Source of the DNA: an uncultured archaeon
Lineage (GTDB): Archaea; Altiarchaeota; Altiarchaeia; IMC4; SCGC-AAA252-I15
Direction: 5' to 3'
DNA length: 37,420 nt
Assembly (NCBI GenBank): GCA_964587725.1
Contig: CAZPLO010000013.1
Location: 1 to 37,420 of the forward strand
Shown here in pieces: positions 534 through 20,058 of the stretch. The first letter of the stretch is position 1; each line of letters opens with the position of its first letter. The translations under genes and the position numbers were made by a program. The notes beneath the pieces are model-generated. The model did no database searches. It saw only the letters and a program-made list of their open reading frames with translations, and had not been told where the DNA came from.

Positions 534-564
534 CTTAAATAGTCTTGTTCAAACGCTCTATACG

Positions 565-3297: not shown

Positions 3298-3533
3298 CAC
3301 TCTTCACCTTCTTTGACGATGTGTATCACGTTCACCGGGCACGCCCCCATAGCGTCGGGGTTGCATCCCAGGCCGTCGTCCTTCAACTCTATCTCGTAGA
3401 GTCCGTCTTCCGCTTTTTTCGAGTTTTTCAGCGTCGTCTTGCCGTCGTCCGCCATCTGCCAGTACTCGGGGCATAGGCTCGCGCACGCACCGCATCCGAT
3501 GCATCCTTCCCTGTTCAAACGTACCTTAGCCAT
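3297..3533 (-). CDS. Single-cluster ferredoxin
   Basis: CIGCGACASLCP ... GACPVNVI. Confidence 0.9.
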   Translation of the reverse strand: MAKVRLNREGCIGCGACASLCPEYWQMADDGKTTLKNSKKAEDGLYEIELKDDGLGCNPDAMGACPVNVIHIVKEGEE

Positions 3534-3544
3534 GCTTTCACCGC

Positions 3545-3877: not shown

Positions 3878-3878
3878 C

Positions 3879-4253: not shown

Positions 4254-4265
4254 CTCACTCACCCC

Positions 4266-4709
4266 TTACTTGCCCAATAACTGGCTCAGCTCCGAAACGT
4301 GCTCCTGCTCGTCTATGATGATGTGCCGTAGCATATGCTCCAGGGATTCGAACTCGTACTGGAGTTTGTCCTTGTTGTCCGCCGCCTTCTTGTAGATTTG
4401 CTTGTAGAAGTCGATGGCGTCCTTCTCGTCCTTCAGGTTAAGGTTGAGTATTCCTTCCACGCCGTCGGCGTCGTGAGCCTCCTTCATCGTCATCACCGGC
4501 ACCCCACCCAGGTACGCCCCGATCATCTCTCGGAACATGTCCTCGTGCTCTTTCTCGTCCCCGGCTATCTCCTTGATTCGGGCTATGACGGGTTCGGACT
4601 TCAAGCCCGCAATCTTCTCCGCGTGGGCGAGGTACTGTATCCGCGCCCTGTGCTCCAGCTCCAATGCAGTGTTCATCACCTCCACAAGCTCCTGTTTCAC
4701 GTCATCCAT
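4266..4709 (-). CDS. Ferritin-like diiron protein (bacterioferritin/rubrerythrin-like)
   Basis: E...Y, EKEH, EKDAIDFY, EQEH four-helix ligand pattern. Confidence 0.85.
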   Translation of the reverse strand: MDDVKQELVEVMNTALELEHRARIQYLAHAEKIAGLKSEPVIARIKEIAGDEKEHEDMFREMIGAYLGGVPVMTMKEAHDADGVEGILNLNLKDEKDAIDFYKQIYKKAADNKDKLQYEFESLEHMLRHIIIDEQEHVSELSQLLGK

Positions 4710-4711
4710 GT

Positions 4712-5221
4712 TCACTTCACCTTCTTTATCTTTTTAATCAATTCCCTGTTGAATGCGGGGAGGTCGCTGGGCTGCCTGGACGATAACCAGTTGCCGTCCA
4801 CCACGACCTCCTCGTCTAATACCTTGGCGCCGGCTGCGCGCAAATCATCCTGTATGCCGCGCCACGCCGTGCCCTTCCTGCCTTCCACGACGCCCGCTGA
4901 AATCATGGTTTGGACGCCGTGGCAGATGCTCGCCACCGGCTTGTCGTTTTCCATGAAATACTTCACCGTCTTGACTGCCGCCTGGTTCTGCCTTACGGTC
5001 TCCGGGCCTTTGCCGCCCGGCAGCACCAGCACATCGTATTTCTCCGGCTTCACGTCCTCGAACGCGAGATGCACTTCAGTCGAGTACCCGTGCTTCCCGG
5101 TTATGGTGCCTTTCTCTGTTGAGGCGACATCCACTTCCACGCCTTCCTCGAGCAGACGGTACAGTGGACACAGCAGTTCCGTGTCCTCGAACTGGTCCGC
5201 ACTCAACATCAACGCATTCAC
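4712..5221 (-). CDS. pfpI: PfpI/DJ-1 family protease/deglycase
   Basis: ADQFEDTE, LVLPGG, ICHG, SSRQPSDLPAF; GTG start overlaps the upstream stop (GTGA). Confidence 0.92.
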   Translation of the reverse strand: MNALMLSADQFEDTELLCPLYRLLEEGVEVDVASTEKGTITGKHGYSTEVHLAFEDVKPEKYDVLVLPGGKGPETVRQNQAAVKTVKYFMENDKPVASICHGVQTMISAGVVEGRKGTAWRGIQDDLRAAGAKVLDEEVVVDGNWLSSRQPSDLPAFNRELIKKIKKVK

Positions 5222-5493
5222 TGCTTGTACCTCTGGTCGAACCGCGTCCACGCCGAAGACGCCTTCGAACCCGCTTCGTCGAGGGCGGACAGCACCTTCT
5301 CCTTAATCTCCTTCGTGGTCACTTCGCCCGTCTTCTTCGCGGACTCGGTGACGTCCTTGACGGTCTTCTCAATCAGCTCCTTCTTCTCCTCAACGGACTC
5401 TCCGGCGTCGACCAACGCCTTCTTGATGGAATTCCTGATCTTATCTTCGCTGTATTCCTCCTGTTCCCCGCTTTCCTTCTTTACATTAAACAT
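5218..5493 (-). CDS. Stand-alone ATP-cone domain protein
   Basis: VKKESGEQEEYSEDKIRNSIKKA matches the ATP-cone N-terminus; VTTKEIKEKVL; SD GAGGTGA. Confidence 0.75.
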   Translation of the reverse strand: MFNVKKESGEQEEYSEDKIRNSIKKALVDAGESVEEKKELIEKTVKDVTESAKKTGEVTTKEIKEKVLSALDEAGSKASSAWTRFDQRYKQ

Positions 5494-5504
5494 TTTTCAT
5501 CACC

Positions 5505-6302
5505 TCATAGTTCCGTGTCGTTAACCAGTGTCGATCCTCCGCTGGAGCCCGCCAACTCCAACACCCTCTCCAGCGACACGACCTCTGGGTCGTATATGAC
5601 CCAGTGGGTGTCCTGCGACAGGCTGAAGCTCTTGGTAATTATTCCGGGCTCGTTACTCAGCAGCTGCCCGACATTGTTTGCGCAGCTCCTGCCGAAAAAG
5701 CTTATGTTGATGTAGGCCAGGTGATATCCTTCGTCGGCGTACCGGTCGAAGTAGCCGGTCACACGCAGCGTCGTGGTGGTGGGCAGCCGCAACGTGGTCG
5801 TGTTGCTCACCGTGTCGCCTATGGGCTCCAGTACGCAGGTGTTGTCCCTGCACACCGCCCTGGAGAAACATGATATGTGGTTGGATGTCGCCGGCATGCA
5901 CACTACGCCCCTGCACTCCTCCTCCAGCCGTCTCTTATACTCGTCCAAGTATTCCCTCGCTATTGCGGTGTTGGTGCCGCCGGCGGTGCAGCCGTTGCAG
6001 TCGCCCTTCGCCAGAACACAGTCGGAATCCAGTTCACAGTACTTCATCGGATCGAAGCCGAAGAACGTCGTGGTCGTCGCCTCCATCATCCCATACGTAG
6101 TGGAAGTAGGCTCCACACGAGGCTCAGATGCAGTCGTGGTGGTCTCCAATGGCGTTTCAGACGCTGGCATAGCCCATATAAGGTAGATTACAGCCAACCC
6201 AATCAGGAATACGGCAATATGCCAGGGTTTAACGCCCGTGGAGACAGAATCCTGTTTTCCAGTGTTTTCAGAGCCCTCAGATGGTGTTTCGTCCTGCGCC
6301 AA
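5505..6302 (-). CDS. Membrane-anchored Cys-rich protein with Thr-rich linkers and a degenerate C-terminal HMA-like domain
   Basis: TM PWHIAVFLIGLAVIYLIW, TTTT linkers, 9-Cys domain, GRSCANNV...VIYDPEVVSLERV; TTG start after GGAGG. Confidence 0.7.
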   Translation of the reverse strand: MAQDETPSEGSENTGKQDSVSTGVKPWHIAVFLIGLAVIYLIWAMPASETPLETTTTASEPRVEPTSTTYGMMEATTTTFFGFDPMKYCELDSDCVLAKGDCNGCTAGGTNTAIAREYLDEYKRRLEEECRGVVCMPATSNHISCFSRAVCRDNTCVLEPIGDTVSNTTTLRLPTTTTLRVTGYFDRYADEGYHLAYINISFFGRSCANNVGQLLSNEPGIITKSFSLSQDTHWVIYDPEVVSLERVLELAGSSGGSTLVNDTEL

Positions 6303-6344
6303 ATGTCCTCCACTAATGTGTTATACATGAGGGTTTAAAAGCTT

Positions 6345-6425
6345 TCAGTACACCATCCTGTAGAGCAGTATAATGGCTATTAAGGCAGCCAGAAGCAGTA
6401 TCCAGACCGCCACAGCCCTCCACAC
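6345..6425 (-). CDS. Putative 26-aa single-TM microprotein
   Basis: GTG start; VWRAVAVWILLLAALIAIILLYRMVY fills the gap after the LigD-PE gene; weak RBS. Confidence 0.35.
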   Translation of the reverse strand: MWRAVAVWILLLAALIAIILLYRMVY

Positions 6426-6441
6426 CGCCTTTCAACCGCAT

Positions 6442-7002
6442 TCAACCCTCCTGTTCCCGTATCTCATCCAACGACCTGCCCGTCAGCGCCGAATCCGGTT
6501 CCGTGCTCACCGGATTCCTCCTCGCGTCGGCTTCATCGTCTTTCGTCTTCACCATAATCCAGTGCCGCTGTTTGGGCCGGGTGAGGGTCAACGCGTACCC
6601 TCCCTTCAGTTTCCTCCCGTCCAGCCACACCTTGATGTGGCCGTTCTCCAAACCTTTCGAAACGCTCTCTTCGTTGAGGTTTTTATATTCGCCGGTGTCC
6701 CACACCATCACCGTCCCCGCGCCGTACTCGCCCTCAGGGATAGTGCCCTCGAATCCGGCGTAGTCGAGGGGGTGGTCTTCCGTCATTATCGCAAGTCTTT
6801 TCACGCCGGGGTCGGTGGACGGACCCTTAGGAATCGCCCACGACTTCAGCACGCCGTCCACCGCCAACCGGAAGTCATAATGCAGGTGGCTGGCGTCGTG
6901 CTTCTGAATCACAAAAACGCCCCCCTTGTCTGTTCCGCCGGACGGCTCCGGCGTCTTCCGGAAATCCCGTTTCTCCTCGTAGTCTTTGAGTTTGTCGCTC
7001 AC
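6442..7002 (-). CDS. Stand-alone LigD 3'-phosphoesterase (PE) domain protein
   Basis: KRDFRKTPEP, FVIQKHDASHLHYDFRL, SWAIPKG, EDHPLDY, FEGTIPEGEYGAG; GTGA overlap with the DUF72 stop. Confidence 0.92.
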   Translation of the reverse strand: MSDKLKDYEEKRDFRKTPEPSGGTDKGGVFVIQKHDASHLHYDFRLAVDGVLKSWAIPKGPSTDPGVKRLAIMTEDHPLDYAGFEGTIPEGEYGAGTVMVWDTGEYKNLNEESVSKGLENGHIKVWLDGRKLKGGYALTLTRPKQRHWIMVKTKDDEADARRNPVSTEPDSALTGRSLDEIREQEG

Positions 7003-7718
7003 TCTAGCATCCCCTCCAATGTTCTCGCGTTCTCCACCGCGTAGGCGTTGGCGTCGTTGTTGAAGTACGCGTACACGCGGTCGCATCCCGCATCCCTTAT
7101 TTTCTTGCCGTACTGTTTGAGTTCCTTATCGGAGTAGCTTTTATTATAGCTTCCGCCGTGGAACCGGAAGTACCCCACCCGGTGTGTGACTACGGTTTCC
7201 TCGGGCATGCCGAGACCGGACACGGTCACGAAAGCGGTTTTATGGTCCTCCAGCAGCCGGTATACTTCGTCATCCCACCAGCTGTGGTGTCGGAATTCGA
7301 CCGCGTTGTCTCGGCGGCCGTCCAAAGAATGCAGAAAGTCTTTAAGCCGGCTCATGTTCTCTTCAGTTCTTTTGAAAGACGGCGGCAGCTGGAACAAATG
7401 ACAGCCCTTTTTCCTGCCGAGCAGGCTGGTGAGTTCGTACAGGCCCTTCACCTTCACGCCGACGTCGTGCAATTTCTTCACGTGGGTTATGGTCCGCGGC
7501 GCCTTTATCGTGTACTTGAAGCCCTTGGGCGCCACCCACTCCCAGTTGCGGAGGGTCTTCTCCCTGGGCCAGTGGTAGAAGCTGTAGTTCACCTCCACGG
7601 TGTCGAACCGTTCGCTGTAGTATCCGAACCAGTGCTTCCTAGGCAGCCCCTCCGGGTAGAACCGCTTCATCCAGTGGCGGTAATTCCAGCCGGAAGCCCC
7701 CACCAGATACTCAACCAT
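6999..7718 (-). CDS. DUF72 (YecE) family protein
   Basis: GASGWNY, TVEVNYSFY, KAPRTITH, FQLPPSF, EFRHHSW, RFHG, YFNND. Confidence 0.93.
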   Translation of the reverse strand: MVEYLVGASGWNYRHWMKRFYPEGLPRKHWFGYYSERFDTVEVNYSFYHWPREKTLRNWEWVAPKGFKYTIKAPRTITHVKKLHDVGVKVKGLYELTSLLGRKKGCHLFQLPPSFKRTEENMSRLKDFLHSLDGRRDNAVEFRHHSWWDDEVYRLLEDHKTAFVTVSGLGMPEETVVTHRVGYFRFHGGSYNKSYSDKELKQYGKKIRDAGCDRVYAYFNNDANAYAVENARTLEGMLE

Positions 7719-8214
7719 GGTATGCCTCCGCAAACTCTTTCACGTCCTTTTTGAACCGTTCCTCCATCTCAGGAAACCTCATAGCAGCAGCCGGGTGATA
7801 GGTTTCAACATACCGTATGCCGTCTAGTCGCGAGGTCTCCCACGCCACCCTACCCATCAACAGCACATGCTTCGGCGTTATCTCCTCAAGCTGCCTCCGT
7901 AGAAAAGGCATGCACGCTTTTATCTCGTCCTTCCTCTGCTTCCTATTATTCGGCGTCTTGTGCTTCACCACCGACGTGATGTAAAGTTCGCCCCGGTCCA
8001 TGCCGTATTCCTCCAACACGGAGTCCAGGTACTCACCCGCCCTACCGACGAACGGCCGGCCCGTCTCATCCTCCTTCGAACAGGGGTTCTGCCCCACCAA
8101 CATTGCGTCCGCGTCCACGGGACCCTCTCCCGGCACCGCCTCATGGGCTGTCTTCCACAATCTGCAGCGCCTGCACGCCCTTATTTCACGGTACAGTTCA
8201 TCCATTCCTCCCAT
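7711..8214 (-). CDS. udg: Uracil-DNA glycosylase family 4
   Basis: CRRC, VPGEG, GQNP, GRPFVGRAG, YHPAA; start may be 8205. Confidence 0.88.
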   Translation of the reverse strand: MGGMDELYREIRACRRCRLWKTAHEAVPGEGPVDADAMLVGQNPCSKEDETGRPFVGRAGEYLDSVLEEYGMDRGELYITSVVKHKTPNNRKQRKDEIKACMPFLRRQLEEITPKHVLLMGRVAWETSRLDGIRYVETYHPAAAMRFPEMEERFKKDVKEFAEAYHG

Positions 8215-8449
8215 ATGTGCAGGTCAGCTCCGCCGCGTCCACGAGGGTGTCGTGGAGGGGGATGTTCCACGCCAGCCAGTGAGTCCACGTGCCCTTCCTG
8301 GAGTCCACGTCCTCCATGTGGAGGGCGAGGGAGACGGCGCCGTCGGGTATGTCTTCTATGGTCAGCGACGGGTTCACGTCTTCTCCGTCGCACGTGTATC
8401 TCTCGGGTATCCTGCCTCCGCTGGGGAAGGCGCAGCTTATCAGTTTCAT
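8198..8449 (-). pseudogene. YbhB/YbcL (PEBP) family gene with a large in-frame internal deletion
   Basis: IPERYTCDGEDVNP, EDVDS, WTHWLAWNIP, then directly the C-terminal AELTCTYGR; GY.GP.PP and HRY motifs absent; only 83 aa. Confidence 0.65.
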
Positions 8450-9273
8450 CGTTCGAACTCCGCGAACGGCGGAACAATGATTCGGCCGCCGTCGCCTATC
8501 GAGTCTATCCTCTCCATTTCATCCTCCGACAGTTCGAAGTCGAACACTTTCATGTCCTCCGACGCGTGCTCCACCGAACTGGACTTGGGGATTACCACAG
8601 TGTCCTTCTGCAGCAGCCACCGCAGTGAAACCTGCGCGGGGGATTTGCCGTGTTTCTCACCTATCTCCTTTAATGTGGGGTTGTCCATCACATCCCCCCT
8701 CGCCAGGGGACTGTATGATTCGACAACGACGTCTTTACCCACACAGTATTCGAGCAGCCTCCGCTGGTAGAGGCCGGGGTGGAACTCCACCTGATTCAAT
8801 GTGACGTCGAGGCCCAGTTCCTCGCATGCAGGCAGATTCTGTTCCAGGTGCTTCACTGTGAAGTTGCTGACCCCCGCATACCGTATTCTGCCGCCGTCGA
8901 CGAGCTCCTTGAATGCCTTGAAGGTGCCTTTCATGTCCATGGTGCTGTCCGGCCAGTGTATCATGTATAGGTCGAGGTAGTCGGTGCCCAGCCGCCTCAG
9001 GCTGCCTTCGCACGCCCTCAACGTTTTGTCGTAGCCGAGGTTGCTCTGCCACACCTTAGAGGCTATGAACAGTTCCCCCCGGTCGAAGCCTTCTATGCCG
9101 TCGCGTATCTCCTCCTCGTTCCCGTACATTTCCGCAGTGTCAAAATGGCGGTACCCCATCTCCAAAGCCTTCGAAACCATTTTGACGCACGCGTCGCCTG
9201 TCAACTGCCAAGTACCCAAGCCCAAGACGGGGATTTCAACCCCGTTGCTCAACTTCTTGCCGGGTATGTCCAT
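8446..9273 (-). CDS. Aldo/keto reductase (2,5-DKG reductase-like)
   Basis: LGLGTW, DTAEMY, DLYMIHWP, GVSNF, NQVEFHP, IPKS. Confidence 0.95.
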   Translation of the reverse strand: MDIPGKKLSNGVEIPVLGLGTWQLTGDACVKMVSKALEMGYRHFDTAEMYGNEEEIRDGIEGFDRGELFIASKVWQSNLGYDKTLRACEGSLRRLGTDYLDLYMIHWPDSTMDMKGTFKAFKELVDGGRIRYAGVSNFTVKHLEQNLPACEELGLDVTLNQVEFHPGLYQRRLLEYCVGKDVVVESYSPLARGDVMDNPTLKEIGEKHGKSPAQVSLRWLLQKDTVVIPKSSSVEHASEDMKVFDFELSEDEMERIDSIGDGGRIIVPPFAEFER

Positions 9274-9274
9274 T

Positions 9275-10384
9275 TCATTTCAGCCTCGCCTGCTTCTTCA
9301 ACGCAGATATTATGTCGTCGAATACTTCGATGGGGTCCCATCCACTTTTGGCGGCGTGGAAGTTCCGGAGGTCGGTTATCATGTTCGCCTTCATCTCGTA
9401 CAGGGTTTTCCTGCCTTCGTCGTTGGTGGATTTCACGGTCACCTTCAATTCCTTCAGCGTATCCAGCCCTATTCTCTTGTCGTAGAAGTCTGTGAATGAC
9501 TTGAGGCTTTTCTCCATCTGCTTCCACGTGAACGGGTCGAACTCGTGCTTGGAGATGATGGCTATCTTCTGCTTGCTCAAGTCGGCGGCGGGCCGGAAGC
9601 CCTCGAGGAACCGGAGGACGTCCCTGAATGTGACTAGGGTGCCGTCGACTCCCGCGTACACTGTGTTGTAGTATCGCATGTCGTTCAGTATCTTGTGGAG
9701 GCTGTCGTCCCTGCTTCCGCGGACCACCAGGAGCTCTGTCGCGTTTTGGGCGTCGACGCCGAGGCGCTTGGTTTTTTCGCCGGAGCGCTCCCCCACCGTC
9801 GTGGTCTTCCGGGGGAGCCGGGATATTTTCTCGGCGTAGTCTTTCTCGCCTATGAGGCGGTTGGCTTCCGCCTCCCCCACCAGCATCTTGGTGAGCTCCT
9901 TGTCCCTCAAAGCCACTCTCGCCTTGTCGACTTCCTCGTGGACGCCTATTGTCGGATAGTCCATGGGGTCTATGTCGCCTGCCTTCATGTTCTTGAACTC
10001 GTCCTGTTGGATGCACCAGTCCAGTATCCTCTGGAGTGTGAGGAGGCGTGCGGGGTTGTCTTTCTCGCCCACGGGTATTGCGCGGAAGCTGTTGCTCCAC
10101 ATGTCGTGGAGTGCGTCGAATACGCTGGTGTCTTCCGGCAGCACCGGCGTGCGGGTGAGAGCCGACTTCACCTTGGCCTTGTCCGGCTGGTTTTTGGATG
10201 AGACTATGTCCCTCGCGGACAGCATGCCCTCGTATTTTTTGCCGTCGAACACTGGCAGCGCCTGCGTCCGGTGTTTTATCATCTTCCCTATGGCCGAACC
10301 CAATGTCTCGGACGGGGCCAGCCGCGCCTTCGGTTCCTCGCACAATTCCGTCAACGTTGTAGTGCCTAACTTTTCGTCTAACAT
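9275..10384 (-). CDS. CBS-domain protein with a C-terminal HPF/RaiA-like domain (HibA-like archaeal ribosome hibernation factor candidate)
   Basis: Two CBS pairs, then a ~95-aa beta-alpha-beta-beta-beta-alpha pattern (LKVTVK...YEMKANM...AAKSGWDPIEVFDDIISALKKQ). Confidence 0.72.
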   Translation of the reverse strand: MLDEKLGTTTLTELCEEPKARLAPSETLGSAIGKMIKHRTQALPVFDGKKYEGMLSARDIVSSKNQPDKAKVKSALTRTPVLPEDTSVFDALHDMWSNSFRAIPVGEKDNPARLLTLQRILDWCIQQDEFKNMKAGDIDPMDYPTIGVHEEVDKARVALRDKELTKMLVGEAEANRLIGEKDYAEKISRLPRKTTTVGERSGEKTKRLGVDAQNATELLVVRGSRDDSLHKILNDMRYYNTVYAGVDGTLVTFRDVLRFLEGFRPAADLSKQKIAIISKHEFDPFTWKQMEKSLKSFTDFYDKRIGLDTLKELKVTVKSTNDEGRKTLYEMKANMITDLRNFHAAKSGWDPIEVFDDIISALKKQARLK

Positions 10385-10578
10385 CCTGATACCTCACACA
10401 CGCAGAGTCCGTGCTGTTTGAGTAGAAAACAAAATCGCGTTTCTCCAGCCTGCTTTTTCCTCACGTGTTCCTCCGCAGACGAGAATGTGAACCACAGTTT
10501 ATAAATCATACGGCCTGAAAACGAAATTCTCATAAATTAATGATTTTTCCTTGTAAATTCATGATTTTTCATTAATAT

Positions 10579-11262
10579 TTAAGAATCCGTTACCACCACG
10601 CAGTCGCCGTCCTGGCAGTAGGTTGCTCCGCCCCTGCACGCGTCCACGGGGCTTAGACTGAGGCTGGAGTCCTCCACACAGTATGAGTCCGGCGTGGTGG
10701 GGTTCCTGCACACGGGAGTCACCGTCTTCAAGTACACGTCGCCGAGGTGGCAGACCCTCTCCCTGCTGGGCAGTCCGCAGTCCGTGTTCCTGCTGCACCG
10801 GATTTCCGGGGTGGTTGTTGTCGTCGACGTGGATGTGGTGGTCGGCACCAGAATGCATTCTCCGCCGACGCACGCGGGCCGCATGAAGCATGACGGGTGG
10901 TTGGACATCACCGCAGGGCACATGATGGCAGCACATTCCGGGGCTAGCATGTTCAGCCACTCCTCACGGTACGCCCGCGCCACCGCCGTCGCCTCACCGC
11001 CGGATGTGCAGCCGCAGCATCCCGCGTCGGCCGAAACGCAGTCGAAGTCGGAGTCGCAGATCATGAGGTAGGATAAGTCGGCGACGGTCGTGGAGGTGGA
11101 CTCCGGGGTTTTGTAGGCTGTTGAAGTAGTGGTTGAAACTACGATTGACGCCCCAGTTACCGGGTGGTTGTCGTATCCGTCCCACGCGATCCACACAACA
11201 ACCGCCACCAATACCGCGACCGCAGCCAGCAGAGGATATCTGGAGCCGTTATTCAACACCAC
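10579..11262 (-). CDS. Membrane-anchored Cys-rich surface protein (two disulfide-rich domains, Thr linkers)
   Basis: N-terminal TM; 10-Cys domain paralogous to 5505-6302; second C...TDC domain. Confidence 0.75.
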   Translation of the reverse strand: MVLNNGSRYPLLAAVAVLVAVVVWIAWDGYDNHPVTGASIVVSTTTSTAYKTPESTSTTVADLSYLMICDSDFDCVSADAGCCGCTSGGEATAVARAYREEWLNMLAPECAAIMCPAVMSNHPSCFMRPACVGGECILVPTTTSTSTTTTTPEIRCSRNTDCGLPSRERVCHLGDVYLKTVTPVCRNPTTPDSYCVEDSSLSLSPVDACRGGATYCQDGDCVVVTDS

Positions 11263-11393
11263 ACCACCCCCACGGGGTCGGCGATTACCGCGTAAGCGCC
11301 GGCCTTGGATGTGTCGCAGAAGCTGCCGTGTCCGTGTTCGAGGGGTGTGCCGCAGACGAGGCAGACGTCGTGTTTAACGTGCGATTCTTCCAT
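11253..11393 (-). CDS. Putative 46-aa Cys/His-rich microprotein
   Basis: MEESHVKHDVCLVCGTPLEHGHGSFCDTSKAGAYAVIADPVGVVWC; overlaps neighbours on both sides. Confidence 0.4.
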   Translation of the reverse strand: MEESHVKHDVCLVCGTPLEHGHGSFCDTSKAGAYAVIADPVGVVWC

Positions 11394-11496
11394 CCGCACC
11401 AGCCTCTTCACCCAGTACGAAGACGTTGACCACCTGGAGGTCGCGGTCTTCTCCCACAGACATTGTGGTGTGATCCTGAATTACCAGCTTCTTCAT
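11374..11496 (-). CDS. Putative 40-aa microprotein
   Basis: SD GAGGTGA, then MKKLVIQDHTTMSVGEDRDLQVVNVFVLGEEAGADGRIAR. Confidence 0.45.
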   Translation of the reverse strand: MKKLVIQDHTTMSVGEDRDLQVVNVFVLGEEAGADGRIAR

Positions 11497-11502
11497 CCCC
11501 GT

Positions 11503-11613
11503 TCACCTCAGATACCATTCAATGGTCTGCGCCTTCACCTGCGTCCAGTTCACCTGCTTGGTCAGGGGGAAGTGTACGTTACCCCCCCTCTCAACCGTAT
11601 GTTCTTCTTCCAT
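11503..11613 (-). CDS. Putative 36-aa microprotein
   Basis: SD GGAGGT, then MEEEHTVERGGNVHFPLTKQVNWTQVKAQTIEWYLR. Confidence 0.45.
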   Translation of the reverse strand: MEEEHTVERGGNVHFPLTKQVNWTQVKAQTIEWYLR

Positions 11614-11806
11614 CTAAACCTCCATAAACTGTTTTCTTAAGGCCGCCCATCCTCTTGTCGCGGAGGTATCTTTCAACCTCCGAGCTGATGAACGACTTAA
11701 GCCTGGCTCTGCCGCGGCTCCTCTGCTCCGCGGACAGTGCAGCCCACCTGCCCACGTCCGCCGCATACGACGGCGGCATGGGCTCGCTCGCGTAGCTTAT
11801 GTTCAC
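11591..11806 (-). CDS. Hypothetical 71-aa basic protein
   Basis: GGAGG SD before GTG, directly after the stop of the 564-aa gene. Confidence 0.5.
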   Translation of the reverse strand: MNISYASEPMPPSYAADVGRWAALSAEQRSRGRARLKSFISSEVERYLRDKRMGGLKKTVYGGLDGRRTYG

Positions 11807-11818
11807 CCGTTCCTCCGT

Positions 11819-13513
11819 TTAAAACCTCGTCCTCGGCACCCCGGTGGGGTTGCTCTCCCACTCCCGGCCGCCCCTGTTCTTCAACGCGAAGTACAGGAGC
11901 ACCGCCAGCGGCAGGTATATGCCCGACCCGCCGGATGGTATGTGGACTAATGCGTTCCCCAGCACCGTGGTTATGGTGGACGACACGGTTATCTCGTGCT
12001 CGACTTCGTCTACGTCATCCAACTCCACCGTGAGGACATAGTCTCCCGTGTCCTCCACAGGGAACGTGAACCCCAGGGACTCCGTCTCGTCCGCGTCCAC
12101 GTATACGTCCTGGGCCTGCGTCTCGAACCCCGACTCGCCCGTCAGCGTCGCGGATACGGGGTAGCTCATCCCTTTGGTGCCCGTATTCCGCACCTTCACG
12201 GCGACGTTCAAATCCTCTCCCTCCTCGGGTTCAGCGTATGCGACGTCGACTATGACGCCCTGCCGGTCGAACACACCCTCTGGATAGATTGTGACCTCGA
12301 CTTCGTCGTAGACTTCCTTCCCCGCTGATTCCACAGTCACCTTGCCGGCGTATGTGCCGGGGGTTATGCCCTCGTTGTCGCATTCCACCGTGAACGTCGA
12401 AACCGTATTGGGCGCTGCGTCGCCGAGCCTCAAGTCGCATGTGCCCTGCACTTCATCGTCTTCGTCCACCACCTTCATGTGGAGCCACGGCTGCCGTTCC
12501 TTGTCGGCTGGGTTGTCGAATTTCACCGTAACGGGTATGAACCCTTCTTCCTCGCTCTCCCCTACGGACACGTCAAGGACGTGTCCGCAGTCGCCGTCGG
12601 CGTAGCAGCCTACGGGCCGGTTGGCCTCGTCCACTTTCACGCAGTAGTCGCGGCCGCCTTCGAACGGGAACCGGTCTCCGTTGTAGCACATCCGCGAGTT
12701 CAAGTCGCATTTCACCCGGTCTATGCCGTGCTCGTTCATCACGTTCCTGAGGTTCTCGCAGTACAGGTCCTTGTCCATCATCTTCAACGTCATGTCAATG
12801 GCTTCCACGGCGTAGTTGGTCCTCTCCAGCGACTCCTGGGTGCCGACTATTGCTTCGCTGTTGCCCCCTATTCTGCCGCTGTTGGAGTTGATTGCCTTGC
12901 GGTTGACGTTGACTTCGTCGCGGGTGTCCCCTATGATGCCGTAGACTTTAGTGAATTCAGGCCCTGTTATGTCTCTTACTTCGGCGCCGGTGAACGCCGC
13001 AAGCGACTCCAGTATCGAGTATTCCACGTACCCTATGCTCTTGGATTTCCCAGTCCTGTAGTCCGCCACCTCCTTGAGGGCGCGGTCCATCGCCCCGGTC
13101 GCCGACTGCTGGTCGGGCTCCAGTTTGTAGAGTTCCTCGTGGGTGTGCGTCGTAATCAGCGTGTTGTTAGGGAGGTCTTCCCAGTTGACGTCGTTGAAGT
13201 AGACTTCCACGCCTCCGTTGCTGCCGAAGTAGTTGTTAGCCACAATCTTCGAGCCTGACCCGGCTGACGCTATTCCCGCTCCTTCTCCGCTGGCGGACAC
13301 CTGGTCGCTGGTGAGGTAGTAGTTGTTGGCTGTTATGCTGCCGCCGGCCACAACCTCGCTGTTGCTGTTCACGTTTCCGTCGGCGTTCGTCTCCACGTTC
13401 GTGTTCGCGTCCTGGTCCGTCTCCACCTTTATGTCGACGGTTACTTCAGCGGCCGCCGCGCCGCAGAGCACCGTCAACACCATCAAGACCGTCAGGTAAG
13501 CTGCTGCTTTCAT
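11819..13513 (-). CDS. Secreted, C-terminally anchored surface protein (coiled-coil stalk, Cys cluster, Ig/CARDB-like domains)
   Basis: Signal peptide ending AAAA-E; N@d heptads; VKVRNTG-type Ig strands; C-terminal TM plus KNRGGR; SD GAGGTGA. Confidence 0.8.
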   Translation of the reverse strand: MKAAAYLTVLMVLTVLCGAAAAEVTVDIKVETDQDANTNVETNADGNVNSNSEVVAGGSITANNYYLTSDQVSASGEGAGIASAGSGSKIVANNYFGSNGGVEVYFNDVNWEDLPNNTLITTHTHEELYKLEPDQQSATGAMDRALKEVADYRTGKSKSIGYVEYSILESLAAFTGAEVRDITGPEFTKVYGIIGDTRDEVNVNRKAINSNSGRIGGNSEAIVGTQESLERTNYAVEAIDMTLKMMDKDLYCENLRNVMNEHGIDRVKCDLNSRMCYNGDRFPFEGGRDYCVKVDEANRPVGCYADGDCGHVLDVSVGESEEEGFIPVTVKFDNPADKERQPWLHMKVVDEDDEVQGTCDLRLGDAAPNTVSTFTVECDNEGITPGTYAGKVTVESAGKEVYDEVEVTIYPEGVFDRQGVIVDVAYAEPEEGEDLNVAVKVRNTGTKGMSYPVSATLTGESGFETQAQDVYVDADETESLGFTFPVEDTGDYVLTVELDDVDEVEHEITVSSTITTVLGNALVHIPSGGSGIYLPLAVLLYFALKNRGGREWESNPTGVPRTRF

Positions 13514-13567
13514 TTTATCGTTTTCACCTCTTTTTCCTCTACCTTCATTTTTCGCCTTAAACTTGAT

Positions 13568-13605
13568 TTGAGCCTGCCGCGGGACTCGAACCCGCCGGGG
13601 CAGAC
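13568..13605 (-). ncRNA. tRNA-minihelix-like element (acceptor stem plus T-arm)
   Basis: Minus strand GUCUGCC-CCG-GCGGG-UUCGAGU-CCCGC-GGCAGGC-UCAA: 7-bp stem (one G-U), 5-bp stem, canonical 7-nt T-loop. Confidence 0.55.
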
Positions 13606-13630
13606 AAAAAAATGTGGGGGTGAGACCCCC
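13606..13630 (-). terminator. Hairpin plus U7 terminator-like element
   Basis: GGGGGU-CUC-ACCCCC then ACA-UUUUUUU, about 10 nt after the stop of the 224-aa gene. Confidence 0.65.
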
Positions 13631-13639
13631 GTGTTGTGT

Positions 13640-14314
13640 TTACTGCGTGCACTCGCCGTTCGGGCACTCGCAGAAGGGGCCTTCACACCCTGGCACTTCC
13701 GGTATCGGGCAGTCGTTGCAGATGCCGATGCCGACCAACTCCTCGTATATGAAGGGGTCGTCGGTCAAGATGCCCTTCTGGAACACACCAATGTTCGGGT
13801 TGTTGGAGCCTATCAGGCCAGGCCCATGCGCCGCGTCAGGGGTGTCCATCAGGAAGTACACGCTCTCCACGTCGTGCAAGGCTGCGGTGTTGAACATGGT
13901 GTCAATCCACGCCTCCGTTGGGTAAGCCAGTTCTCCGGGGGCACCGTTGGGGTTCCTCCACGGGTCCTGGGCGTTCTCCCAGAGTGTCGTGTCTTCCGTC
14001 CACACAGCCACTTCCTTCTCTATCAGGGTGTCGCCTGAGCCAGTTACATACTTGGCTTCCTGCATTACCCACGGAGCTGGGTTGTAGACCTGAGCCCCTA
14101 TCAGTATGCTACCGTCGTTGTCGATGCACTCATCGATGTAGCCGGTAACCTGCCAGGTCTGCCCTTCGCTCCAGTCCATACCCCGGACCATTGAGGTCTG
14201 GGAGTACTTCGTCTTTCCTCCTGTGTTCTGGACCATAGCCTCTATGTTGCTCATCGCGGAAGCTGCTCCCGCAAGGAACACCAAGGCCATAACTCCAGCC
14301 AACAGTTTTTTCAT
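13640..14314 (-). CDS. Secreted beta-rich hypothetical protein with a Cys/Pro-rich tail
   Basis: Signal peptide MKKLLAGVMALVFLAGAASA; SD GAGGTGA; tail CNDCPIPEVPGCEGPFCECPNGECTQ; alternative in-frame ATG at 14374. Confidence 0.8.
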   Translation of the reverse strand: MKKLLAGVMALVFLAGAASAMSNIEAMVQNTGGKTKYSQTSMVRGMDWSEGQTWQVTGYIDECIDNDGSILIGAQVYNPAPWVMQEAKYVTGSGDTLIEKEVAVWTEDTTLWENAQDPWRNPNGAPGELAYPTEAWIDTMFNTAALHDVESVYFLMDTPDAAHGPGLIGSNNPNIGVFQKGILTDDPFIYEELVGIGICNDCPIPEVPGCEGPFCECPNGECTQ

Positions 14315-14475
14315 TTTTTCTTCTTCACCTCTTGTTTTTTTAGTGTTGTCTATTTGATGTATAGACCGTGACATGATTCAGTACCTCCAGTCGACGTTGT
14401 ACGCCGACTCGGCGATTACGTGATGAACTCTCTTCGGTTTTTTGTTTATGTAGAAATACTTTTTGACTTGGATTT

Positions 14476-14582
14476 GGGGTTCGGTGCAGGCCAGTGCAAA
14501 AGCAGTCTTGGCGTCAGAACAGTATGCTTCAGTCCCCGGCGTATCTCCAACGGTGGTTGGCTTGCAGCCTGCACCGGACCCC
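14476..14582. ncRNA. Structured intergenic RNA candidate / long inverted repeat
   Basis: GGGGTTCGGTGCAGGC pairs with GCCTGCACCGGACCCC (16 bp, one G-U on + strand); inner TGCAA/TTGCA, AAGCA/TGCTT, CCAAC/GTTGG. Confidence 0.45.
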
Positions 14583-14860
14583 GTCCCACCCACCAGTCCA
14601 TATGTGAGCTTACTCAACAAAACCTCCAGCAGATGTTGATGTTGAACCGGTTATTGAGAACAGATTACATAGGAAGTAGTGAGCGGATTTTGGGTGAGAA
14701 AAACTATGCTGCCACCCGCCCACGTGTTCGGATTTTTTTTGCTTAAGTTCTGCCAACAAATCCTCCGTTGTGGTATGTGAGTCCCTGTATAAAAACACAC
14801 CGGTTTCAAATGTGAAGTAAGTATTCAATTTTTATTCGCATCCGCACAAACAGTTTCACC

Positions 14861-17818
14861 GTGGAATCCGAAACAGAAGACGGTGGCTACCGGCCCCTCC
14901 GCGACAAAGACCTGACGGTTTTGCTGGCGATGATGGTGTTTCTGGGACTGTACGCCGCCAGTTTAAGGAATTTCCTGTTCTTCCACGTGACCGCCGAGTT
15001 GTTCAGCATCGTCATAGCCGCGGGGGCGTTCATGTTCGTGTGGAACAGCCGCCGCTTCCTCGACAACAACTACCTCCTCCTGGTGGGCGTCGGCTTCCTG
15101 TTCATCGCAGGCATAGACTTGATACACACCCTCGCATACAGGGGAATGGATATTATCGGAGAAGGCAGCAACACGGCAACACAGCTGTGGCTTGCCGCAA
15201 GATACATGCAGGCGCTGACGTTTTTGGCCGCGCCGCTGCTGCTCAGCCGGAAACTCAACCCCTACCACATCGCCGCAGGCTACGCATTGGCGACCGCGTT
15301 CCTCCTCGCCTCCATCATGGTGTGGGACGTGTTCCCCACAGCCTACGTCGAGGGTGTGGGGTTGACCGCGTTCAAGGTGTACAGCGAATACTTTATAATA
15401 GTATTACTGGGTGCGGCGGCGTACCTCCTGCACAGAAGACGGAACCGTTTCAACCCCGGCGTACACCACCCCCTACTCTACAGCATCTATGCAACCATGC
15501 TGTCGGAGCTGGCGTTCACCTTCTACGTGGACGTGTACGGGTTCAGCAACTTCATAGGCCACGTGCTGAAGATAATAGCGTTCTACCTCGTCTACACAGC
15601 CGTTATCGAAACCGGATTGCTGAAGCCGTACAGCATACTCTTCAGAGAAATCAAGAACAGGGAGGAGGAGCTGGAGCGTAGCGAGGAACGATACCGGAGC
15701 GTGGTGCAGACGCAGACGGAGCTTATCGCTAGGGAGAAACCCGACGGCACCATAGTCTACGCGAACCCCGCATACTGCAGGTTCTTCGGTAAGTCTTTGG
15801 ATAAGTTAGAGGGGACGAGCACCTACGACCACATCCCCGAGAAGGACTGGGAGATTGTGAAGAACACATACGAGTCGCTTAAACGCGGGGAGGAGGTTGT
15901 TGTTGAGAACCGGGACGTCCGCGCCGACGGGGAAGTGCGGTGGCTGCAGTGGAAGGACGCCGGCGTATTCAACGAACAGGGGGAGCTTATTGAGGTGCAG
16001 GCTGTGGGGCGGGACATAACCGACCGCAGACGGGCGGAGGAAGCGGTTCAGAGGGAGCGCGACAAGCTGTTGAACTTCCTGGAGTCCATGGAGGACGGAG
16101 TCTACATAGTCGGCGCAGACCATCAGGTGGAGTACGTGAACCCCGTGATAAAGGAGGAGTTCGGCGTCGTGGAGGGGAGGAATTGTTTCGAATACTTCAG
16201 CGGCCTGGACGAGCCGTGTCCGTGGTGCAGCCTCGGCAGGGTGTTGAAGGGGGAGACGTGCAGGACCGTGTGGACGTCGCCGAGGAATGCGAGAACATAC
16301 GACATCATCGACACCCCCGTACACAACCCCGACGGCAGCGTCTCGAAGCTGAAGATTATGCGGGACATCACCGAACAGAGCATAATACAGGAGGAGCTCC
16401 GGAAGTCCGAGCAGAGATACAGGTTCCTCTACAACGAAAGCCCGTCCCTCAACGTGGTGTTGGACACCGACGGCGTCATAAGGAACGTGAACCAGACCGT
16501 GTTGGCGGAACTCGGATACGGACGCGGTGAAGTGGCGGGGAAGCACATGAGGGATTTCATCGCTGAAGAACAGCAGAAGGACGTGGACGCCGCAATCAGA
16601 AAACTCGTTTCAGGCGAATCCACCGGCGACATGGAGGTGGCCGTGAGGGCCAAAGACGGCGGCGAACACATCATACTGTTCTCTCCCGGAAAGGCCGGGG
16701 CATACGAGCACGGCAACTTCTCAGGCATACTGTTGACTGGCGTAGACATCACCGAGCAGAAAAGGGTGGAGGACGCCCTGCGGCAGTCCGAAGGCATGTA
16801 CCGGTCGCTCGTCGACGCCTCCCCCGACGCCGTATTGCTGGGAGACATCGACGGCAACCTGACCTATGCGTCGCCGAGGGCTCTGAAGATGTTCGGGTAC
16901 GGGGAGCTGGCAGGCAAAAACATATCCGAGCTGGTCGCCAAAGGAGGCAGAAACAGGATAAAGTCGGACATGGAGCGGATGAAGGCATCCCACGTGCTCC
17001 GCCGCATAGAATACACGATGGTGCGCGGAGACGACACCACCTTCGTCGGCGAACTCAGCTCCGCCGTGATAAAGGACGCGAACCGTCAGCCGAAATGGTT
17101 CATCACCATCGTCCGGGACGTGACCGAACGCCGCGAGCTGGAGGACCTGCGGAGCAGATTGCTGCGTGACTTAGCCCACCAGCTGAAGACGCCGTTGAGC
17201 GTGATAGAGATGGCCTCCGACGTGTTGAAAAAAGACATGGAGGACTACGACGAAGCCGAAACGGAGAGCCTGGACATGATATCGCGGAACACCGTGGAGA
17301 TGCGTGACCTGGTGTCGAAGATACTGAAGCTCAGCTCCCTGGAAAGCGGCAGGATAAAGGTGAACAGGGAGAAGTTCGATTTGGTGGAGGCCGTGAAAGA
17401 GGTGACGGTGGATATGAGGCTGCTGGCGGACGAGAAGAAACTCAAACTGAAGGTGAAGACGCCAACGCACTTGACCGCATACTCCGACCCCAAGAAGATA
17501 GAGGACGCCGTCGGGAACCTGGTGGAGAACGCGATAAAATACACGGACAACGGCACGGTCACGGTGACCGTTGAAAAAGACAACGGAGACGCCGTGGTCA
17601 CGGTTAAAGACACGGGCATCGGACTCACCAGACAGGATTTGAAGCAGGTGTTCACCCGCTTCTACAAGGCCGACGCCAGCGTACCCGGCACCGGCCTGGG
17701 GCTGAATATTGTGGCAGAGGACATGCGGCTGCTCGGCGGCTCGGTGGAGGCGGAATCCAGGGGCCCCGGAGAAGGAAGCGTTTTTAAGATAAGGTTCCCA
17801 ATAGCGAAGGCGAAATGA
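14861..17818 (+). CDS. MASE3 membrane sensor, four PAS domains, histidine kinase
   Basis: FFHVTAELFSIVIA MASE3-type TM region; four PAS/PAC (RDIT/RDVT ends); AHQLKTPL, NLVENAIKYT, DTGIG, GTGLGL. Confidence 0.92.
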   Translation: MESETEDGGYRPLRDKDLTVLLAMMVFLGLYAASLRNFLFFHVTAELFSIVIAAGAFMFVWNSRRFLDNNYLLLVGVGFLFIAGIDLIHTLAYRGMDIIGEGSNTATQLWLAARYMQALTFLAAPLLLSRKLNPYHIAAGYALATAFLLASIMVWDVFPTAYVEGVGLTAFKVYSEYFIIVLLGAAAYLLHRRRNRFNPGVHHPLLYSIYATMLSELAFTFYVDVYGFSNFIGHVLKIIAFYLVYTAVIETGLLKPYSILFREIKNREEELERSEERYRSVVQTQTELIAREKPDGTIVYANPAYCRFFGKSLDKLEGTSTYDHIPEKDWEIVKNTYESLKRGEEVVVENRDVRADGEVRWLQWKDAGVFNEQGELIEVQAVGRDITDRRRAEEAVQRERDKLLNFLESMEDGVYIVGADHQVEYVNPVIKEEFGVVEGRNCFEYFSGLDEPCPWCSLGRVLKGETCRTVWTSPRNARTYDIIDTPVHNPDGSVSKLKIMRDITEQSIIQEELRKSEQRYRFLYNESPSLNVVLDTDGVIRNVNQTVLAELGYGRGEVAGKHMRDFIAEEQQKDVDAAIRKLVSGESTGDMEVAVRAKDGGEHIILFSPGKAGAYEHGNFSGILLTGVDITEQKRVEDALRQSEGMYRSLVDASPDAVLLGDIDGNLTYASPRALKMFGYGELAGKNISELVAKGGRNRIKSDMERMKASHVLRRIEYTMVRGDDTTFVGELSSAVIKDANRQPKWFITIVRDVTERRELEDLRSRLLRDLAHQLKTPLSVIEMASDVLKKDMEDYDEAETESLDMISRNTVEMRDLVSKILKLSSLESGRIKVNREKFDLVEAVKEVTVDMRLLADEKKLKLKVKTPTHLTAYSDPKKIEDAVGNLVENAIKYTDNGTVTVTVEKDNGDAVVTVKDTGIGLTRQDLKQVFTRFYKADASVPGTGLGLNIVAEDMRLLGGSVEAESRGPGEGSVFKIRFPIAKAK

Positions 17819-18186
17819 AGAAGAACATACTTGTGGTGGAGGACAACAAAGACCTTCAGAGGCTGTATCACAGGATGCTGTCCGACAGATACAACCTCTA
17901 CCAGGTCAGGGACACCAAGGAGGCGTGGAGGATAATCAGCCAGAAACCCGTGGACCTGGCCATACTCGACATCATACTGCCGAAAGGCAACACCGGCGAC
18001 CAGTTCTACATGCAGCTGACCCAGGACCCCGAATACCAGCACATCCCCGTCATATTCGTGTCAGTCATAGACGACGTAGAGGAGGCGCGGGCGCTGGAGA
18101 ACGTCAACCACGCAGCATACATAACCAAGCCGTTCAAGGAGGAGCAGCTGCTCGATAAAATAGAGGAGATGCTCGGAGATGGTTGA
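17815..18186 (+). CDS. Single-domain response regulator (receiver)
   Basis: ILVVED, LAILDIILP, YITKPF; ATGA overlap with the kinase. Confidence 0.92.
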   Translation: MKKNILVVEDNKDLQRLYHRMLSDRYNLYQVRDTKEAWRIISQKPVDLAILDIILPKGNTGDQFYMQLTQDPEYQHIPVIFVSVIDDVEEARALENVNHAAYITKPFKEEQLLDKIEEMLGDG

Positions 18187-19444
18187 AGCGAACTGGGCGG
18201 TGGACTACACCGCACTCTACGGCTTCCTCATATCCTTGGGCGTGGGGGCGCTGGTGGGGATAGAGAGGGAACGCCGCCTGCAGAGGAAGGACGAGCGCCA
18301 GGTGGCGGGTGTTCGGACGTTCATATTGATTGCGTTATTGGGAACCACCGCAGCTTTAGTGGCTGAAGACAACCCGTACTTCTCCGCAGTGATTGTGGCA
18401 GGCGGAATACTGTTGATCGGCGCAGGATACTATCTGTCCAGCACCAGAACAAATGATATCGGGTTAACTACGGAGGTGGCTCAGCTGCTGGTTTTCGCCT
18501 TCGGATACCTCGCATACGATGAGGGCACCCGGAACGTGAGCGTGATGCTGGGCATAATAACCGCCGTACTGCTGGCCCTGAAGGAGCACCTGCACGAGTT
18601 CGCGAAAGACATACAGAAGTACGAGTTCATAGACACCTTGAAGTTCGCGGTCATCGCCTTCATCATACTGCCGCTGCTGCCGGACAGGACCATAGACCCG
18701 TGGGGCGTCGTCAACCCCCACCAGCTGTGGCTGCTGGTGGTGTTGATTTCAGGCATCAGCTACGTAGGATACATACTGGTTAAGGTGCTGGGCGTTGAAC
18801 GCGGACTCGGCCTCACCGGCTTCCTCGGAGGCCTCAGCTCCTCCACCGCCGTGACCACCGCCATGGCGTCCAAAACAAGCAGGAACTCTTCGGTGGTTAA
18901 GCCGGCCGCGTTCGCGGCCGTGATAGCTTCGACGGTAATGTTCCCGCGCATCGTGTTCGAGGTCGCGGTGGTCGACCGCGGACTGCTCGCGGAGGTGGCG
19001 GTTCCGGTGGCGGTGATGTTCCTCGCCGGACTCGCGGCCGCACTGCTCCTGTGGAGGAGCAAGAAAGACATCAAGGCCGACCTGGATTTGAAGACCCCGT
19101 TCGCGCTGAAGCCTGCGCTCAAGTTCGGGGCGTTCTTCCTGATAGTCCTGCTGCTGCAGCACTTCGGAAAAACATACTTCGGCAGCGGCGGACTCTACGC
19201 GGTCAGCCTGGTGTCTGGGCTGGCGGACGTCGACGCCATAACACTGTCCACGGCGAGGATGGCTTCCACCGGCGACATAAACTCGCAGACGGCGGTGAAC
19301 GCGATAGTGTTGGCTGCCATGGCCAACACGGTTATGAAGGCGGTGTACGCTTACGTGATCGGGAACCGGGGCTTCGGAAACCTCGTGGCAGCCGCTTCAG
19401 CGGCCATGATAGTGGCGGGCGCCGCCACCATACTCCTTCTATGA
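18179..19444 (+). CDS. MgtC/SapB family membrane protein with DUF4010
   Basis: LVGIERE, AGVRTF, GLTTE, GGLSSSTAVT, GLADVDAI. Confidence 0.88.
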   Translation: MVEANWAVDYTALYGFLISLGVGALVGIERERRLQRKDERQVAGVRTFILIALLGTTAALVAEDNPYFSAVIVAGGILLIGAGYYLSSTRTNDIGLTTEVAQLLVFAFGYLAYDEGTRNVSVMLGIITAVLLALKEHLHEFAKDIQKYEFIDTLKFAVIAFIILPLLPDRTIDPWGVVNPHQLWLLVVLISGISYVGYILVKVLGVERGLGLTGFLGGLSSSTAVTTAMASKTSRNSSVVKPAAFAAVIASTVMFPRIVFEVAVVDRGLLAEVAVPVAVMFLAGLAAALLLWRSKKDIKADLDLKTPFALKPALKFGAFFLIVLLLQHFGKTYFGSGGLYAVSLVSGLADVDAITLSTARMASTGDINSQTAVNAIVLAAMANTVMKAVYAYVIGNRGFGNLVAAASAAMIVAGAATILLL

Positions 19445-19446
19445 GA

Positions 19447-20058
19447 CTACTTCAGTATCTTCCCCGTCTCCAGATACCACAGGTACAGATCCAGTTCCGC
19501 TAATGTTATGCCGAGTTCCCCAGCCATCTCCCTTAACTTCTCCTCAATCATCAGATACTTCTTCCTCGTCAGCGTCTTCGGCTTAGCTATGATTTTATGC
19601 TCCACCAGTGCGTCTATGATGTGGAAGTCGATTATTGCGACGTCCTTGAAACCTATGTTCCTCAAAAAGTGGCTGGCCTCCTTCAATCCCAGACCCTTCA
19701 CGTTCTCCACCAGCCAGTCACGCAGCTCCCGTTCGTCATTGAACTTCAGCTTCTCCAGCGGATGCTCCCGCGCACACACGATGTATTTGGCGCGGACGTT
19801 CGGAAACCGGTACCCGAGCTCCTTCAGCCTGGAGGCGAGCTCCGGTTCGGACAGTTCCGCGAACCCGTCGCCGACCTCGTTCTGGATGGCTATTGCGCGT
19901 TCCGCGTTATAGTTCGCCGTAAGTATGCAGAAGCAGAGTTCATTGAACAGCGAGCACCGGGGCCGGCCCATCATCCCCCCGAACTCCCGTATCCTCGCCC
20001 TCACCCGTCCGCCGACCTCCCCACCCATAAGGGCGCGGACTCTATCCTGCAGGTTCAT
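19447..20058 (-). CDS. ogg: 8-oxoguanine DNA glycosylase/AP lyase (Ogg2)
   Basis: ELCFCILTAN, GYRFPNVRA, KGLGLKEASHFLRN, IIDFH, C-terminal GKILK. Confidence 0.93.
   Translation of the reverse strand: MNLQDRVRALMGGEVGGRVRARIREFGGMMGRPRCSLFNELCFCILTANYNAERAIAIQNEVGDGFAELSEPELASRLKELGYRFPNVRAKYIVCAREHPLEKLKFNDERELRDWLVENVKGLGLKEASHFLRNIGFKDVAIIDFHIIDALVEHKIIAKPKTLTRKKYLMIEEKLREMAGELGITLAELDLYLWYLETGKILK

Follow-up and report, generated by a model that had tools for sequence, protein, structure and literature searches.

Why does a look-alike of the upper half of a tRNA stand between two genes whose products carry signal-peptide-like stretches, and does it do anything there? In the window, by which we mean the whole 37,420-nucleotide stretch of DNA analysed (contig C13 of the host genome G000), positions 13605-13572 of the minus strand read as a 34-base hairpin that resembles the upper half of a tRNA, followed by a U at 13571. 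A reading made from the letters alone, called the sequence-only reading below, had proposed that this element is a mascRNA-like processing signal at which read-through mRNA is cut; below, it is treated under this proposal as a working t-element. We regard that proposal as possible but doubtful. The most likely reading, which we hold tentatively, is that the element is a tRNA-derived relic without a designed role, and a relic or a chance shape is more likely than a processed hairpin.

The host is an uncultured archaeon, identified as archaeal by its intron-bearing tRNA genes, its CCA-adding enzyme of archaeal type and a likewise archaeal-type RNase P RNA candidate. Its genome comprises 1.56 Mb in 48 contigs, with a GC content of 0.565 and an estimated completeness of 92%. 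Its phylum and its class contain the same 61 species genomes, all marked incomplete, so that 60 relatives besides the host were available for comparison.

Structure of the element

Every structural detail claimed in the sequence-only reading (the hairpin, the U7, the 7-bp acceptor stem, the 3-nt linker, the 5-bp T-stem and the UUCGA T-loop) is borne out by the sequence and by RNAfold, and the 224-aa gene that it placed upstream is indeed found, as a 244-aa open reading frame read from the internal Met21, a 224-aa form that is also on record from a gene caller (Table 1). Six Watson-Crick pairs and one U-G pair make up the acceptor-like stem of 7 bp, which is followed by a T-stem of 5 bp. The features of tRNA type comprise a TTCRANY loop, the pairs G53-C61 and G1-C72, and a T-stem that abuts the 3' acceptor strand without an intervening base. 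When an 86-nt stretch was folded with RNAfold, the stacked 7-bp and 5-bp helix with its 3-nt bulge was both the minimum free energy structure and the centroid, at -31.9 kcal/mol and a z-score of -3.54, and none of 200 shuffles folded as well. The minihelix is also retained when folded in a 231-nt context. A T at the discriminator position is likewise present in 3 of the 20 listed host tRNA genes.

Table 1. Features at and around the minihelix-like element, from the upstream to the downstream gene (window positions)
Feature	Positions	Strand	Remarks
Upstream gene (ORF of 244 aa, probably read from Met21 as 224 aa)	13640..14374	-	Stop codon TAA at 13642-13640
GC hairpin GGGGGU-CUC-ACCCCC	13616..13630	-	Starts 9 nt past the stop codon
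T7 tract, likely archaeal oligo-T terminator of the upstream gene	13606..13612	-	ACA between GC hairpin and T7
5' acceptor-like strand GUCUGCC	13599..13605	-	Immediately 3' of T7
3-nt linker CCG	13596..13598	-	Stands where the D and anticodon arms would be
T-arm look-alike GCGGG-UUCGAGU-CCCGC	13579..13595	-	GCGGG 13595-13591, UUCGAGU 13590-13584, CCCGC 13583-13579
3' acceptor-like strand GGCAGGC	13572..13578	-	
U at discriminator position	13571	-	No encoded CCA behind it
Putative TATA box GTTTAAGG of the downstream gene	13555..13562	-	10 nt past the element
Shine-Dalgarno-like GAGGUGA	13524..13530	-	10 nt ahead of the ATG at 13513
Downstream gene, 564 aa	11819..13513	-	ATG at 13513

Contigs from three of four microbial-mat DNA runs (X1, X2 and X4), which stem from one study and, as possible sources of the assembly, are not independent of it, cover the entire element with zero differences; the element is therefore not an assembly artefact. 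In the remaining run, X3, two overlapping contigs end within it.

The element is not a tRNA gene. ARAGORN reported no tRNA gene in the window, nor any on contig C13 when introns were allowed, and the tRNA model RF00005 gave no match there, either in a local Rfam scan of 13400-13800 (E ≤ 10) or in a scan of the whole genome (E ≤ 1). No tRNA, tmRNA or other Rfam family reaches its gathering threshold at the element, and no other tRNA-like sequence was found across the whole window at E ≤ 5. The mascRNA-menRNA model RF01684 does align to the acceptor stem and T-arm, but the element does not belong to that family, since its score of 15.7 bits (E 1.7 in 401 bases) falls well short of the 42.5 required. 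In mascRNA and MEN-beta, RNase P and tRNase Z detach a tRNA-like 3' end from a longer RNA, and CCA is added to it; mascRNA occurs in the mammalian nucleus and its cloverleaf covers 56 model positions, in both respects unlike the element.

Searches for copies and homologues

The element is present in a single copy. For its 39 nt, the best other match in the host genome is 13 nt long, and the 13-nt matches on contigs C35 and C2 lie inside long open frames and look like chance. The 24-nt sequence formed by T-arm and 3' strand is absent from all 60 relatives, which are all the other genomes of the class, at up to three mismatches, and its exact form is absent from 185,579 species genomes and from viral contigs. 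A structure model built from the element and run over the 61 genomes scored the element itself at 63.5 bits, whereas the next best match, the T-arm of a real tRNA, reached 24.4 bits; the matches inspected are T-arms of ordinary tRNA genes, except for one in a coding-looking stretch of the host's own genome. The model thus retrieved no second minihelix in the 61 genomes.

Looser searches retrieved more distant likenesses. The 22-mer has a single match in metagenome contigs (locus L023), which lies antisense in a TgpA/transglutaminase-like gene of a GC-rich bacterium and which we judge to be chance. A complementary 5' strand is present there too, yet the sequence has a z-score of -0.92 and 36 of 200 shuffles fold as well. 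At the same locus, ARAGORN reports a 102-nt "tRNA-Ser" (1455-1556, minus strand), antisense to the TgpA/transglutaminase gene, a call that is most probably spurious. With a degenerate pattern, 58 bacterial matches were obtained, nine of which are real tRNA genes (Leu, Tyr, Thr), none of them close, as well as four viral matches, two of which are phage tRNA-Thr genes that have the 3' strand and U73 of the element with other T-stems. The combination of GGCAGGC as 3' strand with U73 accordingly occurs in tRNA-Thr and tRNA-Leu genes of certain bacteria and phages, none of which resembles the element closely overall.

The orthologous locus could not be located in relatives either: a 601-nt DNA query against 40 of them matched in one, over a 28-nt A/G-rich stretch outside the element. 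The sequence-only reading had called for copies with compensatory changes in the genome and its relatives, and this expectation failed, with zero copies and no homologue bearing compensatory base changes found in the host genome, the 60 relatives and public collections. Since no homologue was found, and since the flanking genes are near-orphans within a strain-specific stretch, covariation could not be counted.

Flanking genes and the strain-specific stretch

The upstream protein has a signal-peptide-like stretch from Met21 and a Cys-rich C-terminus and belongs to no Pfam family. Only two homologues were found among 5.8 billion proteins, both distant (40-41% identity); in the 60 relatives a threshold of E ≤ 0.001 retrieves none, and relaxing it to E ≤ 0.01 adds a single match over 50 residues, in G012 (E 0.002). 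The downstream protein has a signal-peptide-like N-terminus, a CARDB domain and a C-terminal membrane anchor with a basic tail, and its matches among the relatives are weak and partial (3 of 60), with no orthologue. A viral origin of this cassette was considered and set aside, as neither flanking protein has relatives in viral contigs.

In the same-genus genome G001, the counterparts of window positions 271-2993 (a P-type ATPase) and 19449-19956 (an Ogg glycosylase) lie only about 0.9 kb apart, so that some 16 kb of the window (about 3000-19450) is strain-specific. The element is situated in the middle of this stretch and not at its border, and G001 has a 289-aa open reading frame, and no tRNA gene, at the corresponding place. 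The GC content is flat (0.50-0.60), which reveals no compositional island, and a Pfam scan of 24 window ORFs retrieved neither an integrase nor any other family of mobile elements.

Strain variation is visible within the upstream gene. In run X2, a contig of lower depth swaps the segments 13741-13844 and 13918-14058 for other sequence of similar length, which points to strain-level variable regions in the secreted protein. This second form has a depth of 11.6 and the main form one of 65.4, which together approximately equal the 76.8 of the shared contig bearing the element, so both strain forms seem to share an identical element and flank, an observation that is uninformative on selection.

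Putative transcription signals around the element

The T7 tract immediately ahead of the element is, we presume, an archaeal oligo-T terminator of the established kind. In this genome, T7 runs occur within 80 nt past 25 of 1212 long ORFs, compared with 13 for A7. On the other side of the element, the hexamer TTTAAG starts 48 nt ahead of the ATG, in the bin (-50 to -41) that is modal for TATA-like hexamers in this genome: before starts preceded by a Shine-Dalgarno sequence, 38 such hexamers fall in that bin, against 17-29 in the bins further upstream. No promoter-like box was found about 25 nt ahead of 13605.

Because the T7 tract precedes the element and a TATA-like box follows it, the two genes look like separate transcription units. 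Placed between a T7 terminator and a likely promoter, the element may be transcribed only rarely, and only read-through RNA would contain it. This context speaks mildly against the idea that subunit stoichiometry is set by processing of read-through RNA.

A possible tRNA-derived relic

What is observed comprises the sequence and its fold, the lack of further copies, a context peculiar to the strain and the tRNA-maturation enzymes encoded by the host; the tRNA origin, the terminator and promoter roles of the flanking signals and the lack of function are inferred. The relic would have arisen either as an internally deleted tRNA gene or as a tRNA-end fragment that came in with the strain-specific surface-protein cassette. 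Most polymerases would stop at the T7 tract, short of the element, and the next gene would start from its own TATA box just past it. The minority of RNAs that read through would contain the folded hairpin, which could incidentally be cut by RNase P and tRNase Z and tagged by the CCA-adding enzyme.

Several observations argue for such an origin. The 17-nt T-arm is identical to the T-arms of real tRNA genes in the family relatives G007 and G011, and the element carries tRNA-specific features beyond those of a plain hairpin, yet is not a tRNA gene. It is also single-copy, without a second minihelix in the 61 genomes, and is enclosed between a T7 tract directly upstream and a TATA-like box, a Shine-Dalgarno-like sequence and an ATG directly downstream. 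As the 16-kb stretch is missing in G001 and the neighbouring genes are near-orphans, a recent relic under no selection is plausible.

Against it stands the lack of a parent, since no tRNA from which the element could derive was found in the host, the 60 relatives, the species genomes or the viral contigs. Even the nearest of the 27 tRNA 3' ends of G001 differs at 7 of 25 positions, and the UUCGAGU loop is absent from every other T-arm-like match in the host genome. The parent could nevertheless be hidden by introns or unassembled, as the assembly is 92% complete and 20-28 host tRNA genes were detected. An origin by deletion would, in addition, have to remove exactly the D and anticodon arms and to place the junction exactly at position 1, which amounts to two very precise events. 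The structure shows no decay, something that a working element would explain equally well, and there is no integrase, repeat partner or other mobile-element gene nearby.

A more specific version of this origin, an att-site fragment, is not supported. The cited part of a study of archaeal integrases describes their preference for the 3' ends of tRNA genes and for tRNA dyad symmetries (PMC8371274), and att fragments consist of a T-arm and 3' acceptor strand alone in a variable region, where the element, too, is found. Unlike such fragments, the element has a complementary 5' strand and lacks a matching host tRNA, a second repeat and an integrase. The sequence-only reading had argued that a plain att remnant would not be expected to keep a complementary 5' strand, and the argument is sound: by our arithmetic from the GC content of 0.565, a fragment of the att type would have such a complement by chance in about 0.5% of cases over linkers of 0-10 nt. 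That reading had also named an exact match to a host tRNA 3' end at the border of an integrated element as the finding that would overturn it; no host tRNA agrees with the element at its 3' end, and the element does not coincide with an island border, a result to be read with the caveat that the host tRNA genes assembled or detected number only 20-28. Nor is there a second bounding repeat, as the 127-nt spacer has no repeat partner in the host genome (best other match, 15 nt), or an integrase, and the element lies mid-island. 

Possible processing by tRNA-maturation enzymes

If the element were a working t-element, RNA reading through the terminator would fold into the minihelix. RNase P would then cut between 13606 and 13605, leaving the upstream mRNA with a hairpin-U7 end like that of a terminated one (a fail-safe 3' end); tRNase Z would cut past U13571, giving the downstream mRNA a defined 5' end; and the freed minihelix of 34-35 nt might receive CCA. 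An acceptor-like stem stacked on a T-arm with the T-loop consensus is what a t-element calls for, and the complementary 5' strand, unexpected in an att fragment, is expected here.

The host carries intron-bearing tRNA genes, an archaeal CCA-adding enzyme (417.5 bits) and a tRNase Z (355.7 bits), both enzymes above cut-off, together with an archaeal-type RNase P RNA candidate. The latter scores 48.7 bits, below the Rfam gathering cut-off of 84, and no other candidate was found, so that of the enzymes needed for a t-element RNase P is represented, as to its RNA, by a below-cut-off candidate. This candidate is located at G000:C1:97691-97888 on the minus strand (locus L134, 392-589), spans 198 nt and might represent an RNase P RNA that has diverged or been reduced.

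In the cited portions of the literature, t-elements upstream of the 5S rRNA of Haloferax volcanii are cut by RNase P and tRNase Z, which sets RNA ends (PMC4326828, PMC4946936), t-elements of plant mitochondria mark mRNA ends, with leader RNAs that carry added C and A (PMC1920247), and recognition by RNase P, the CCA-adding enzyme and many synthetases is directed at the tRNA top half (PMC4033280). Given the encoded enzymes and candidate and these precedents, the proposed mechanism is chemically plausible.

The comparison also brings out what sets the element apart. It is like the t-elements of those accounts in having a tRNA-like fold with acceptor stem and T-arm beside other genes. For those t-elements, as the quoted sections have it, transcription and cleavage are demonstrated, and they form fuller, non-canonical cloverleaves (the plant cox1 example has 74 nt), whereas the present element is a 34-nt top half only, without the other two arms, and is situated behind a terminator. 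Synthetic acceptor/T-arm minihelices match it in having a 12-bp stacked helix and a T-loop; they are laboratory constructs without a bulge, in contrast to a genome-encoded element with a 3-nt bulge on its 5' strand.

Three further points tell against a working signal: neither conservation nor a second copy appeared in any collection searched, the mascRNA model scores far below its cut-off, as given above, and little substrate RNA is to be expected from an element placed behind a T7 terminator and ahead of what is probably a separate promoter. The specific proposal that a natural, genome-encoded minihelix, a bare top half after an oligo-T terminator, acts as a fail-safe that gives a clean downstream 5' end, with release of a CCA-tailed product possible, seems to us unlikely. 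If true, it would describe the smallest natural t-element, a living counterpart of the laboratory minihelix. Processing of the element would mean that archaea punctuate protein-coding transcripts by means of tRNA-maturation enzymes, with an element far smaller than any described t-element, and it would present a natural acceptor/T-arm minihelix, hitherto a laboratory substrate and a model in theories of the origin of tRNA. A functional element would still be a very small addition to a known kind, that of t-elements and mascRNA, and not a new kind.

Chance expectation and other readings

The frequency of the shape was estimated from 1500 random genome-equivalents with the base composition of the genome. 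The strict shape requires a TTCRANY loop on a T-stem made up of Watson-Crick pairs, with G53-C61, and, stacked directly on it behind a linker of 0-10 nt, a stem of 7 bp in which no more than one pair is G-U. It was found in 3 of the 1500, or about 0.002 per genome, and in none when G1-C72 was added. Without the G-U limit the number rose to 15 of 1500 (0.01 per genome); a still looser definition gave 0.13 per genome-equivalent and, in the reversed genome, 0. The real genome has exactly one strict case, which is this element. Hairpins of that geometry, whatever their loop, number only 12 in the real genome, and the estimate is therefore not inflated by a richness of real sequence in hairpins. 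At the level of the genome, the shape exceeds chance significantly (about 0.002).

The scan from which the element emerged was much larger than one genome. The element might thus be a GC-rich intergenic palindrome with a T-loop-like loop, noticed only because so much sequence was scanned; we think this unlikely, though far from negligible. At 0.002 (strict) or 0.01 (looser) per genome, about 250,000 windows of 37 kb would by our arithmetic yield roughly ten chance cases, a handful, and large scans do yield a few such shapes by chance. The match at L023, with its 5' complement that folds no better than shuffles, and the unique, unconserved nature of the element fit this explanation. It sits less well with the G1-C72 pair, whose addition left no case in the 1500 random genome-equivalents while the real genome has only 12 hairpins of this geometry, or with a T-arm that agrees letter for letter with a real tRNA T-arm of relatives. 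Should the element be a relic or a product of chance, the lesson would be that one perfect tRNA top half, without copies, conservation or RNA data, is no evidence of function.

A role at the level of DNA, either as the binding site of a dimeric regulator or as a pseudo-attB for an integrase that recognises tRNA dyad symmetry, appears improbable. The 34-bp imperfect palindrome does end 10 bp ahead of the TATA-like box that precedes the 564-aa gene. By our count it covers about -38 to -72 relative to the inferred transcription start, and tRNA dyad symmetries and 3' ends are among the targets of archaeal integrases in the portion of the study cited above (PMC8371274). No operator motif recurs, however, as only three loose matches to the half-site pair exist in the genome and the other two are unrelated in spacing and sequence; neither a regulator gene nor an integrase is adjacent; and the likeness to a T-loop would be left unexplained.

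That the element belongs to a tRNA gene disrupted by splitting or by several introns is hardly credible, even in a lineage whose tRNA genes are often interrupted, with only 20 (G000) and 27 (G001) passing the Rfam model and several spanning 100-194 nt, because the 3 nt between 5' strand and T-stem leave no room for an exon or a bulge-helix-bulge motif, and the assembly holds no partner with a matching 5' strand and D-arm, no 5' strand behind the element's 3' end as in a permuted gene, and, in the intron-tolerant ARAGORN search, no tRNA gene on C13.

tRNA genes of the lineage and further observations

In the host, 20 tRNA genes score above the Rfam cut-off and 28 are detected by ARAGORN when introns are allowed; none of the host tRNA genes encodes CCA. 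The same-genus genome G001 (10 contigs, 90% complete) has 27 tRNA genes, and several tRNA genes of the two genomes span 100-194 nt. It seems either that tRNA introns in this lineage are often long or multiple, or that some of its tRNA genes escape assembly. In the relative G007, a tRNA-Gly(UCC)-like gene (locus L083, G007:C16:4330-4364, minus strand) has a 17-nt T-arm equal to that of the element, U73 and an encoded CCA, and another tRNA-like gene lies directly behind it.

Beyond the downstream gene, an ORF of 227 aa (window 10579-11262, minus strand) encodes Thr/Ser-rich linkers and two Cys-rich modules and has no Pfam assignment; its product may be secreted, as the third such protein that the cassette encodes. 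Elsewhere in the host genome, contig C2 has two identical copies of one GC-rich hairpin, loop TTTTTCA, at 6118 and 6342, a distance of 224 nt. Near the end of the window, at about 36256-36297 on the plus strand, there is an imperfect palindrome that consists almost purely of A and T.
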